Shown here: piece after piece, positions 35,257 through 40,425 of the stretch
How positions within the stretch are numbered: the first letter of the stretch is position 1
Layout: every line of letters starts with the position of its first letter
NCBI GenBank assembly: GCA_034189785.1
Contig: JAXHUG010000025.1
Location: 4,447-68,446, forward strand
Length of the DNA: 64,000 nucleotides
Reading direction: 5' to 3'
DNA from: Actinomycetota bacterium
GTDB taxonomy: Bacteria; Actinomycetota; Actinomycetes; Mycobacteriales; Mycobacteriaceae
Program-made: the position numbers and the translations under genes
The notes under the pieces: model-generated
Seen by the model: only the letters and a program-made list of their open reading frames with translations
The model's database searches: none
What the model was told of the DNA's origin: nothing

Positions 35257-35385
35257 CCGCCTCGGCGATGCCTCCACGGCGTCCATCGCATCCAGGGGGA
35301 GTCCGCTGAAGAAGACAGGTCGTCCCCGGCTGTGATAGTCAGGCACGAGCGGACGCGTTGCGCCCCCCAGCACGTCAAACTATAG

Positions 35386-35403
35386 TCTGGACACATGTCC
35401 AGA
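35386..35403. promoter_or_regulatory. Palindromic operator at the manT promoter
   Basis: TCTGGACA-CA-TGTCCAGA, perfect 8-bp arms, abutting a TATAGT -10 element (35381-35386). Confidence 0.72.
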
Positions 35404-35479
35404 AGGTTTGGAGTCTCTGCGTGACGCGATTCGATCAGTTCAGCGCGGCCCGGCCCGCCGTTCTCGGATTCATCTGAGC

Positions 35480-36706
35480 ATGCGTATCGCGTTGCTGTCG
35501 TACCGCAGCAAGACGCACTGCGGGGGCCAGGGTGTGTACGTCCGTCATCTCAGTCGGGGGCTCGTCGAACTCGGTCACGACGTCGAGGTGTTCTCCGGTC
35601 AGCCGTACCCCGAGGGACTCGATCCGCGGGTGCGCCTGACCAAGGTGCCCAGCCTCGACCTCTACCGCGAGCCCGATCCGTTCCGGGTGCCGCGGCCCAG
35701 CGAGATCCGCGACCGGATCGACCTGCAGGAGCTGTTGACGACGTGGACCGCCGGATTCCCCGAACCCAAGACCTTCACCATGCGGGTGGCGCGGATCCTG
35801 GCCGGACGCCGGGGTGACTTCGACGTCGTCCACGACAACCAGAGCCTCGGCACCGGTCTGTTGAAGATCGCCGCGACGGGGTTGCCCGTGGTGGCCACGG
35901 TCCACCACCCGATTACCCGGGACAAGGTGCTCGACGTGGCGGCCGCCCGCTGGTGGCGTATGCCGCTGGTACGCCGCTGGTACGGCTTCGCCGAGATGCA
36001 GAAGCAGGTCGCCCGCCAGATCCCGGAACTGCTCACCGTCTCGGCGTCGTCGGCCACCGACATCGCCGATGACTTCGGCGTCTCGTCCGAACAGTTGCAC
36101 GTCGTACCGCTCGGGGTGGACACCGCGATGTTCCGCCCCGTCGAGAACCGGGTGAGCGGCCGCGTCATCGCGATCGCGAGCGCTGACGTGCCGCTCAAGG
36201 GCATCAGCCACCTGTTGCACGCCGTCGCCCGGCTGCGGATCGAGCGCAACCTCGACGTCCAGTTGGTCTCCAAGCTCGAACCGAACGGGCCGACCGAGAA
36301 GCTGATCGCCGAGCTCGGCATCTCCGACATCGTGCACAGCTCCAGCGGGCTGTCCGACGAGGAGCTCGCCGCGCTGCTGGCGTCCACCGAGGTCGCCTGT
36401 ATCCCGTCGCTCTACGAAGGGTTCTCGCTGCCCGCGGTGGAGGCGATGGCCAGCGGTACGCCGATCGTGGCCAGCCGGGCCGGCGCGTTGCCCGAGGTGG
36501 TGGGTGCCGACGGCGAATGCGCCCGCCTGGTGCGGCCCGGCGACGTCGACGAGATCACCCGGGCGCTCGGCGAGCTGCTCGACTCGCCGGCGCAGCGGCA
36601 GCGGCTCGGGGCCGCGGGCCGACGCCGTGCGCTCGAGGTGTTCAGCTGGGAATCGGTTGCCGCGCAGACCGTCTCGGTATACGAGCGGGCGATGGCGATA
36701 TGCTGA
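35480..36706 (+). CDS. manT: GT4 alpha-(1,4)-mannosyltransferase of MMP biosynthesis
   Basis: MRIALLSYRSKTHCGGQGVYVRHLS and GT4 motif PSLYEGFSLPAVEAMASG. Closely resembles M. hassiacum ManT as recalled and shares its cluster context. Confidence 0.88.
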   Translation: MRIALLSYRSKTHCGGQGVYVRHLSRGLVELGHDVEVFSGQPYPEGLDPRVRLTKVPSLDLYREPDPFRVPRPSEIRDRIDLQELLTTWTAGFPEPKTFTMRVARILAGRRGDFDVVHDNQSLGTGLLKIAATGLPVVATVHHPITRDKVLDVAAARWWRMPLVRRWYGFAEMQKQVARQIPELLTVSASSATDIADDFGVSSEQLHVVPLGVDTAMFRPVENRVSGRVIAIASADVPLKGISHLLHAVARLRIERNLDVQLVSKLEPNGPTEKLIAELGISDIVHSSSGLSDEELAALLASTEVACIPSLYEGFSLPAVEAMASGTPIVASRAGALPEVVGADGECARLVRPGDVDEITRALGELLDSPAQRQRLGAAGRRRALEVFSWESVAAQTVSVYERAMAIC

Positions 36707-37431
36707 CCGTCGACTTGGAACGGCTGGGAATCGGGCCGGGCTCCACCGTGATCGACGTCGGCTGCGGCGCAGGCCGACACACCTTCGCGGCGTACCGGCG
36801 TGGTGCCGACGTCATCGGCTTCGACCAGAACGCGGAGGACCTCAACAACGTCGACGAGATCCTGCAGGCGATGAAGGCCAAGGGTGAGGTGCCGCCGGCG
36901 GCGAAAGCCGAAGTGGTCAAGGGTGATGCGCTCGACCTGCCCTACGCCGACGGCACCTTCGACTGCGTGATCGCCTCGGAGATCCTCGAACACCTACCGC
37001 AGGACACGGAGGCCATCGCGGAACTGGTGCGGGTGCTCAAACCCGGCGGCAAGCTCGCGATCACCGTGCCCCGGTGGCTGCCGGAGCGGATCTGCTGGCT
37101 GCTGTCCGACGGGTACCACGCCAACGAGGGCGGCCACCTCCGCATCTACAAGGCCGACGAACTGCGTGACAAGGTGCTTGCGCACGGGTTGATGGTCACC
37201 CACAGCCACCACGCCCACGCCCTGCACTCGCCGTTCTGGTGGCTCAAATGCGCTGTCGGCACGTCGAACAACGATCATCCCGCCGTCGCGGCGTACCACA
37301 AGCTGCTGGTGTGGGATATGACCGCCGCCCCGTGGCTGACCCGTCGTGGTGAGAAGCTGCTCGACCCGTTGATCGGTAAGAGTGTCGCGCTGTACTTCGA
37401 GAAGCCGACGGTTGCCGATGCTCGCCGCTGA
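36700..37431 (+). CDS. meT3: Class I SAM methyltransferase, MMP 3-O-methyltransferase
   Basis: VIDVGCGAGRH SAM motif, DALDLPY..FDCVIASEILEH; lies between manT and mmpH. Confidence 0.8.
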   Translation: MLTVDLERLGIGPGSTVIDVGCGAGRHTFAAYRRGADVIGFDQNAEDLNNVDEILQAMKAKGEVPPAAKAEVVKGDALDLPYADGTFDCVIASEILEHLPQDTEAIAELVRVLKPGGKLAITVPRWLPERICWLLSDGYHANEGGHLRIYKADELRDKVLAHGLMVTHSHHAHALHSPFWWLKCAVGTSNNDHPAVAAYHKLLVWDMTAAPWLTRRGEKLLDPLIGKSVALYFEKPTVADARR

Positions 37432-39126: not shown

Positions 39127-39128
39127 CC

Positions 39129-39800
39129 CTAGTCCAGCGAACCCGGTTGTCCCGCGGTGCGTTCCAGCGCCCGCATGGATCCGGTCGCACCCACCTCGCG
39201 GAACGCGCCGGTGGCCAGTGCCCGCTGGTAGATGTGGAACGGCGCTCGTCCGCCCTCGTCGGGATTCGGGAAGACGTCGTGGATGATCAGCGCACCGCCC
39301 GGTTCGACCCACCTGGCCCAGCCGTCGAAGTCACGCTGAGCCGCCTCCTCGGAGTGCCCGCCGTCGATGAACAGGAGCCGCAACGGGGTTCGCCATCCGC
39401 GCGCCACCACCTGTGAACGTCCGACCACCGCGACAACATGGGCGTCGAGGTCGGCCGCGTCGAGGGTGTGCCGCATGGTCGGCAGTGTGTCGAACCGACC
39501 CGTCACCGGGTCCACCATGGTGGTGTCGTGGTACTCCCAGCCGGGCTGGTGTTCCTCGGAGCCGTGATGGTGGTCGACGGTGTACACCACACCACCGGTC
39601 TCCTGGGCGGCCGCACCGAGCATCAGCGTGGACCTGCCGCAGTACGTACCGATTTCGACCCCGATACCGTCACCGAGATAACACACCGCCGTGTCGTAGA
39701 GGGTGCGGCCCTCGTCGGCGGGCATGAAGCCGACGGCCTTGTCTGCGAGTGCGAACAGGCGCGCTGCGCGCGGCGGGAGATCGGTGTCGGTGATGCTCAT
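39129..39800 (-). CDS. meT1: MMP 1-O-methyltransferase
   Basis: [59 protein letters not shown] match MeT1 as recalled. Confidence 0.88.
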
Positions 39801-39848
39801 GGCTACCCAACCTAGCCGTTGCTGGTCCAGTGGCGTTGTAGTAGCGTC

Positions 39849-39862
39849 CGGACATGTGTCCG
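39849..39862. promoter_or_regulatory. Second copy of the operator, overlapping the tetR start codon
   Basis: CGGACA-TG-TGTCCG. Its 12-bp core is the exact reverse complement of GGACACATGTCC at 35389-35400. A TAGCGT -10 element lies at 39842-39847. Confidence 0.72.
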
Positions 39863-40425
39863 ATCCGACTCCGGAGTCGACTCGGCGCCGTCTGACCGCG
39901 AAACAGGCCGACACCGTCGACCGGCTGGGGCGCGCTGCGGTCGACATCCTCAACCGTGACGGCTTCTCCGGTCTGACCGTGCGGCGCGTCGCCGCCGAGG
40001 CCGGTGTCGGGGCGGCCACCGCCTACACCTACTTCTCGTCGAAGGAACATCTCGTTGCGGAGGTGTTCTGGCGTCGACTGTCCGCGGCGCCCCCGGCCGC
40101 GCACGTGTCCGACGACCCTGCCGCTCGCGTCGTCGAGGTATTGCGCGACATCGCGCTGCTGGTCGCCGACGAACCGGAGTTCGCCGGCGCCGTCACCAGC
40201 GCGCTGCTCGGCAAGGACCCCGAGGTCGAGGTGCTGCGGCAGCGCATCGGACGCGACGTGCGCGACCGGTTGGTGGACGCGCTGGGCCCGCCGGTCGACT
40301 TCGACGCGATCGAGGCGCTCGAACTGCTGTATGTGGGTGCGCTGGTGTGGGCGGGGATGGGCTACTCGTCCTACGACGACATGACGCAGCGGCTGGAGCG
40401 CTCGGCCCGCCTGCTGTTGAGTTAG
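39856..40425 (+). CDS. TetR-family transcriptional regulator, divergent from meT1
   Basis: [34 protein letters not shown]; GTG start, probably leaderless. Confidence 0.9.

Follow-up and report, generated by a model that had tools for sequence, protein, structure and literature searches.

An LtmA orthologue with two conserved operators flanks the methylmannose polysaccharide genes of a Mycolicibacterium and probably represses manT and its own gene

The TetR-family regulator LtmA of M. smegmatis (Ms6479, MSMEG_6479) is responsive to cyclic diguanylate (c-di-GMP) and binds upstream of the local genes Ms6484 and Ms6482 (Li & He, Nucleic Acids Res 2012, PMC3526308). The DNase I footprint on the Ms6484 promoter (Ms6484p) covers CTATAGTCTGGACACATGTCCAGAGGTTTC, from −92 to −63, which takes in CTATAG of the −10 region and contains the inverted repeat TCTGGACA-N2-TGTCCAGA. 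On Ms6482p the bound site reads CGGACACGTGTCCG; GGACANNTGTCC was given as the core, and binding at both sites is backed by a one-hybrid assay, electrophoretic mobility shift assay (EMSA), chromatin immunoprecipitation (ChIP) and DNase I footprinting (PMC3526308). In 2012 Ms6484 was described as 'a glycosyl transferase' and Ms6482 as 'a hypothetical protein' (PMC3526308); MSMEG_6484 is now ManT and MSMEG_6482 is MeT1 of methylmannose polysaccharide (MMP) metabolism (PMC9883506). The paralogue HpoR (Ms5860) of M. smegmatis is a TetR-family repressor with the same operator core, 43 % identity to LtmA and c-di-GMP-responsive DNA binding, but is encoded elsewhere in the genome and controls the hpoR redox operon, an antioxidant gene cluster (PMC5909442, PMC6101608). 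The present analysis concerns a 64,000-nucleotide stretch of contig JAXHUG010000025.1 (assembly GCA_034189785.1), hereafter the window, in which manT, meT3, mmpH and meT1 are accompanied by a TetR-family gene divergent from meT1. The assembly is a marine metagenome-assembled genome of 3.6 Mb in 120 contigs. An earlier note, made from the letters of the window, had proposed that this TetR controls the MMP genes and itself through a shared palindrome.

Two palindromes flank the MMP genes:

35386–35403, unstranded: LtmA operator 1, TCTGGACA-CA-TGTCCAGA, with the same sequence as the inverted repeat footprinted on Ms6484p and present in 63/63 loci
39849–39862, unstranded: LtmA operator 2, CGGACA-TG-TGTCCG, matching the footprinted 14-mer of Ms6482p except for the central dinucleotide and present in 80/80 loci

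Operator 1 is an 18-bp palindrome, TCTGGACACATGTCCAGA, with its core GGACACATGTCC at 35389–35400 and 80 bp to manT; its first base, T, is the last base of a TATAGT hexamer (35381–35386). Operator 2 is a 14-bp palindrome, CGGACATGTGTCCG, and its core (39850–39861) is the exact reverse complement of the operator 1 core. The paired matching palindromes were thereby confirmed, as was the contact of operator 1 with the −10 hexamer, with which it shares one base (35386). The earlier placement of operator 2 over the tetR start codon held after correction, in that the in-frame start is the GTG at 39856–39858, at the dyad centre, and the ATG at 39854 is out of frame. The pattern GGACANNTGTCC occurs twice in the window where 0.10 occurrences are expected, and none of 100 shuffles reached two. 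A scan of the whole assembly for GGACA-N2-TGTCC gave six sites against four for a reversed control pattern; among the six, only operators 1 and 2 have a CA or TG centre, and only these two match YRGACAYRTGTCYR. Three of the other four lie deep within long open reading frames (ORFs) with high G+C at third codon positions. A further site of the same genome, TGGACAGCTGTCCGATCCGG (C98:3374–3385; L005 1501–1512), has GTCCGATCCG in common with operator 2; no convincing ORF surrounds it, the gene downstream of it is a putative RNase J gene, and it is possibly a chance occurrence.

The M. smegmatis locus (L167–L169), reached through the 90 % protein cluster of the window TetR and its encoding contigs, has the order manT, meT3, mmpH, meT1 (minus strand), a 189-aa TetR, a 210-aa TetR (minus strand), a cytochrome P450 and msrA. 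Both published LtmA sequences were found letter for letter in L169, one upstream of manT and the other in the meT1/TetR intergenic region. The window TetR, itself of 189 aa, shares 76.7 % identity with the 189-aa TetR at the same position and only 20.6 % with the 210-aa TetR, and as in M. smegmatis it is divergent from meT1 and downstream of manT-meT3-mmpH. The c-di-GMP cross-link peptide of LtmA comprises residues 114–120 and includes Lys120 (PMC6101608). These residues read TSALLGK in the window protein, TTALLGK in the 189-aa TetR and LSWIREL in its 210-aa neighbour, so that Lys120 is present in the 189-aa protein and absent from the 210-aa one; the 189-aa TetR was therefore identified as Ms6479. 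An assignment of Ms6479 to the 210-aa TetR near the P450, which locus-tag order would favour, was rejected because of this peptide and because the Ms6482p 14-mer lies at the start of the 189-aa TetR gene. Identity, synteny, the Lys120 peptide and the matching sites together indicate that the two dyads are LtmA operators. By sequence comparison the window TetR is an LtmA orthologue, and its binding to the window sites is carried over from the M. smegmatis protein. The proposal that this TetR binds both dyads is thus supported by one-hybrid, ChIP, EMSA and footprint data for its orthologue at the same two sites (PMC3526308).

Homologues of the window TetR at E≤1e-40 number 2159 and are mostly 189 aa long. 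Within the genus it is 42–46 % identical to paralogues that are themselves associated with dyads, near the published LtmA–HpoR value of 43 % (PMC6101608), and each of these paralogues has TGGACACATGTCCA beside it. Comparison with solved structures gave no close match (best 3he0, E 1.4e-9), and no cut-off was reached among NCBIfam equivalogs (KstR, 42 bits versus 280). The exact 30-mer of the published footprint had no match in 401 genus genomes, a sample evidently without M. smegmatis.

Conservation was assessed in 80 loci from species-representative genomes scanned with the TetR, nearly all of them named Mycolicibacterium or Mycobacterium sp., with Mycobacterium sp. IS-1496 (96 %), IS-1742 (95 %) and M. 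litorale (94 %) as the nearest. Phylogenetic footprinting of the manT and meT1/tetR upstream regions showed that both dyads are conserved. The sequence RGACAYRTGTCY begins 6 bp before the TetR start codon in all 80 loci, and GGACANNTGTCC follows TATAGT, 50–119 bp before manT, in each of the 63 loci with at least 150 bp covered upstream of manT, to which this count was limited. The centre of the manT dyad is pyrimidine–purine in 61 of the 63 loci and AG in the other two. A 28-bp block, GTCAAACTATAGTCTGGACACATGTCCAG, that spans the −10 hexamer and the dyad is invariant, while the 5′ untranslated region downstream diverges; the block is preceded by CGCGTTGCG(T/G), a −35-like TTGCGN 17 nt ahead of TATAGT. 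Operator 2 likewise has conserved blocks, ACCGTTGCTGGT and GTTGTAGTAGCGTCCGGACAYRTGTCCGA. No further strict dyad was found in any of the 12.5-kb loci. Across 61 genus genomes there were 1–5 strict dyads per genome against approximately 0.3 for the control, typically a pair approximately 3.8 kb apart, with one or two more next to an HpoR-like paralogue.

This pattern bears on whether the palindromes might be RNA hairpins, terminators or chance repeats. A terminator scanner marked a 7-bp stem with a T-rich tail on the minus strand at site 1 but made no call at site 2, and a hairpin at site 1 would terminate only antisense transcripts out of manT. The half-sites GGACA and TGTCC are conserved around a free centre (CA, CG, TG or AG), as in operators bound by proteins. 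The shuffles, the assembly scan and the conservation across 80 loci exclude chance, and LtmA binding has been demonstrated experimentally (PMC3526308). A hairpin, terminator or chance origin is effectively refuted by the published footprints (PMC3526308) and is extremely improbable. A small ORF starting from an ATG inside site 1 (ATG TCC AGA ...) was considered separately and rejected, as the downstream sequence is not conserved in frame.

Candidate promoter elements were placed from these conserved blocks as follows:

35358–35363, plus strand: predicted −35, TTGCGC (relatives: TTGCGT/G), of the manT promoter, separated from the −10 by 17 nt, with CGCGTTGCG conserved in 63 loci
35381–35386, plus strand: predicted −10, TATAGT, of the manT-meT3-mmpH promoter, unchanged across 63 Mycolicibacterium loci as part of GTCAAACTATAGTCTGGACACATGTCCAG
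39809–39814, minus strand: predicted −10 of meT1, TAGGTT (TAAGTT in relatives), in the block CAACnTACCGTTGCTGGT conserved in 79 distinct loci
39819–39824 and 39842–39847, plus strand: predicted ltmA promoter, TTGCTG and TAGCGT with 17 nt between them, conserved across loci

Operator 1 takes in the final base of the −10 and extends over the predicted manT transcription start (approximately 35392–35394). Operator 2 covers the ltmA GTG start together with the predicted ltmA transcription start (approximately 39854–39856), the mRNA being leaderless or nearly so. As a rule, a TetR protein that sits on the −10 and +1 acts as a repressor, and the positions of the operators at manT and ltmA therefore point to repression by occlusion. 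In the proposed mechanism, a dimer of the LtmA-type TetR (39856–40425) would bind two near-identical inverted repeats with the core GGACA-N2-TGTCC. At operator 1, which runs from the last −10 base over the predicted start, bound LtmA would block RNA polymerase at manT-meT3-mmpH and so switch off MMP elongation, 3-O-methylation and recycling; at operator 2, where ltmA has its start codon and its predicted leaderless transcription start, it would act in negative autoregulation. The predicted meT1 −10 lies only 8 nt before the ATG, which suggests a near-leaderless mRNA and puts the centre of operator 2 approximately 55 bp upstream of the predicted meT1 transcription start. From there its effect on meT1 could be neutral, negative or positive. 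A ligand would alter the affinity of LtmA for DNA, and the published ligand, c-di-GMP, strengthens binding in vitro.

Repression of manT and of the regulator itself, at the predicted promoters, is likely. The whole is well explained as the Mycolicibacterium LtmA system, with two operators, repression of manT-meT3-mmpH and autoregulation, and this reading is held with good though not full confidence; within it, where the promoters lie, in which direction LtmA acts and which ligand is physiological are our inferences. The suggestion that the TetR co-represses both arms of the cluster and itself is accordingly retained for manT and tetR, on the geometry of the operators alone, and not extended to meT1, where the dyad centre is approximately 55 bp upstream of the predicted start; the literature describes LtmA as an activator. 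The arrangement resembles those of TetR, QacR, EthR and KstR, with a divergent gene pair, a palindromic operator over a promoter and autoregulation. It differs from them in that the LtmA operators, 4.4 kb apart, bracket a polysaccharide biosynthetic cluster instead of an efflux or catabolic gene, and in that the reported ligand of LtmA increases DNA binding instead of relieving it.

Several observations weigh against this interpretation. A consensus promoter scanner called no promoter at either site at its threshold. In the papers of the He laboratory LtmA is an activator, and c-di-GMP at 0.3–1.5 mM enhances its DNA binding (PMC3526308, PMC6101608); the main texts of the LtmA literature do not say how Ms6484 or Ms6482 expression responds to loss of ltmA. 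The assembly, at 3.6 Mb, is smaller than those of relatives (5–6.5 Mb), so that a count of only two sites may be too low. In another genome of this genus (G109) the manT dyad TGGACACATGTCCA persists, with no ltmA orthologue beside meT1 or elsewhere.

The most substantial of the competing explanations is activation of the MMP genes by LtmA, in which c-di-GMP would enhance its binding at both dyads and so raise manT and meT1 transcription. Target expression is down in an ltmA deletion and up on overexpression (PMC3526308, PMC6101608), and a dyad centred approximately 55 bp upstream of the predicted meT1 start is in a compatible position. However, the operator abuts TATAGT and covers the predicted +1 at manT, and covers the start codon at ltmA, a geometry typical of occlusion. 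The published activated genes derive from a search of 500-bp upstream regions that allowed up to 2 mismatches and returned 229 promoters (PMC3526308). In the present genome, core matches at 0, 1 and 2 mismatches numbered 6, 80 and 1133, compared with 4, 59 and 1030 for the reversed control (totals 1219 versus 1093). Matches with up to 2 mismatches are therefore not enriched over chance, and indirect effects on the published activated genes are likely. The paralogue HpoR is a repressor with the same motif, and LtmA itself was reported in a 2026 paper to repress mce4 (PMC13139416). Activation of the MMP genes is thus considered unlikely, although it deserves to be kept in view.

Repression by LtmA at manT has also to be weighed against binding of the dyads mainly by another protein, either an HpoR-type paralogue or the winged-helix protein encoded at 38503–38832, with the TetR a bystander at the manT promoter. 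The manT 14-mer TGGACACATGTCCA is identical to the dyads adjoining HpoR-like paralogues and is contained in the Ms5860p primer (PMC6101608), and a MarR_2-like gene does lie inside the MMP cluster of the window. In G109 (L070, G109:C10 6230–10020) only the HpoR-like paralogue is present, with the identical 14-mer beside it; the persistence of the manT dyad there without ltmA indicates that another protein, probably the HpoR paralogue, can use the site. Set against this, no HpoR-like paralogue was found in the window's assembly at E≤1e-20, another difference from M. smegmatis. The dyads occur throughout the genus, but the winged-helix gene was seen only in the window and in its two nearest relatives. 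LtmA footprints both sites and was recovered there by ChIP (PMC3526308). It is therefore very improbable that another protein is the main occupant of these operators.

The distribution of regulator and operators was then compared in 151 genomes sampled across the family. The TetR was present in 90 (20 genera) and ManT in 70 (14 genera), usually on the same contig and 3–37 kb apart; approximately 57 genomes had TetR and manT, 30 had TetR without manT and 12 had manT without TetR. Other genera retain the start-codon dyad, and there a second dyad stands ahead of an aldehyde dehydrogenase/short-chain dehydrogenase–reductase (SDR) operon or a P450. Second promoters in which TATAGT is joined to a dyad were seen in these genera at L081 6756–8256, L079 11312, L080 13901, L075 11743 and L078 5499. 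A related dyad associated with manT (GGACA-YY-TGTCC) was found outside the genus of the window only in genus g29, and Mycolicibacterium seems to have acquired the manT operator. The neighbours of Rv0767c in M. tuberculosis are aldA (Rv0768), Rv0769, cyp123 and cyp51, and the LtmA-like TetRs of other genera, with their start-codon dyad, adjoining dyad-preceded aldehyde dehydrogenase/SDR operon and P450, resemble that neighbourhood. Rv0767c was named as the LtmA orthologue by Li & He (PMC3526308), but M. tuberculosis is without the MMP cluster (PMC9883506).

From its distribution, the LtmA-type regulator does not appear to be MMP-specific in origin. The conserved strict regulon appears to be small and centred on the MMP cluster, its strict conserved sites being the two MMP-flanking operators and the HpoR sites. 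The description of the circuit as dedicated can therefore be kept in part: there are only two strict sites in this assembly, but HpoR shares the motif, other genera use the dyad at aldehyde dehydrogenase/SDR and P450 genes, and approximately 30 genomes have the TetR without manT.

The genes of the region are as follows:

35480–36706, plus strand: manT, MMP alpha-(1->4)-mannosyltransferase of glycosyltransferase family 4 (GT4), with Pfam GT4 and 765 bits to M. hassiacum ManT (7QSG)
36700–37431, plus strand: meT3, putative MMP 3-O-methyltransferase, with Pfam Methyltransf_11/25/31 (class I S-adenosylmethionine methyltransferase) and synteny in 60+ loci
37418–38488, plus strand: mmpH, MMP hydrolase, with 667 bits to 7QSJ, 'Methylmannose polysaccharide hydrolase (MmpH)'
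39129–39800, minus strand: meT1, MMP 1-O-methyltransferase, with Pfam Methyltransf_24 and 391 bits to M. hassiacum MeT1 (6G7D)
39856–40425, plus strand: ltmA orthologue, TetR-family regulator of 189 aa, with TetR_N (PF00440, E 5.8e-13)
40488–41003, minus strand: msrA

The MMP assignment is sound, since ManT, MmpH and MeT1 match solved MMP enzymes of M. hassiacum; the identities given in the earlier note stand, three by these structures and that of MeT3 by Pfam and synteny. The start of meT3 overlaps the manT stop. On the minus strand meT1 begins with the ATG at 39800, giving a divergent meT1/tetR intergenic region of 55 bp, and the N-terminus of TetR (11 residues) read from the GTG at 39856 is common to the orthologues.

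The window differs from M. smegmatis in the gap between mmpH and meT1, which holds a MarR_2-like winged-helix gene (109 aa, 38503–38832, minus strand) and a frameshifted TerC fragment (approximately 38850–39125, minus strand; Pfam TerC 26.1 bits, just below cut-off). Among the 80 related loci the winged-helix gene occurs only in the two closest relatives (L087 and L088), and it is taken to be a recent insertion. Between ltmA and msrA the window has a 62-bp gap (40426–40487) in place of the 210-aa TetR and P450 of M. smegmatis (L169 8547–10612), and no orthologue of either was found in the window by tblastn. Approximately 1 kb upstream of operator 1 (34400–35380) is without a convincing ORF; the M. 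smegmatis counterpart holds a PNPOx-family gene, whose nearest tblastn match in the assembly is on contig C94.

The binding circuit is already known as the LtmA system, and what is new is only the connection of LtmA with MMP, which had gone unstated. The LtmA papers call the protein an activator and never name its two local targets as MMP genes. The words regulator, promoter, operon and transcription do not occur in the MMP paper PMC9883506, and a literature search returned no paper with both 'LtmA' and 'methylmannose', although papers beyond the searched collection may exist. The statement that no regulator of MMP genes had been described was consequently withdrawn, as a 2012 paper had already described LtmA binding at the promoters of manT and meT1, at a time when the genes did not yet have these names, and the MMP link alone was unstated. 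In a separate 2026 report, MSMEG_6482 (the orthologue of 39129–39800) is presented as MepM, a host methyltransferase said to act on phage tail proteins, with MMP unmentioned (PMC13445384); an effect of MMP might instead underlie the phage phenotype.

By itself the window result is ordinary, being the orthologue of a described system. The MMP biosynthesis genes were named only in 2019–2023, and the LtmA literature treats LtmA as a global c-di-GMP-responsive activator of lipid genes, leaving its two best sites, those that were footprinted, with the gene labels of 2012. MMP binds long-chain acyl-CoA and modulates fatty-acid synthesis. That the TetR senses acyl-CoA, as had been suggested, is pure conjecture, the published effector being c-di-GMP. 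Because of the acyl-CoA binding and the effect on fatty-acid synthesis, phenotypes of ltmA mutants could be consequences of MMP. It is proposed tentatively, as an idea somewhat short of an even chance, that the primary fixed job of LtmA in Mycolicibacterium is that of a local repressor of MMP biosynthesis and recycling and of itself, tying MMP output to c-di-GMP or to some lipid or oligomannoside ligand. On this view altered MMP levels would lie largely behind the published 'global activation of lipid genes', and behind the changes in cell-wall permeability and the antibiotic phenotypes seen in ltmA mutants. These phenotypes deserve to be read again in light of MMP, and joining the LtmA and MMP literatures gives a directly testable statement, namely that LtmA controls MMP production.

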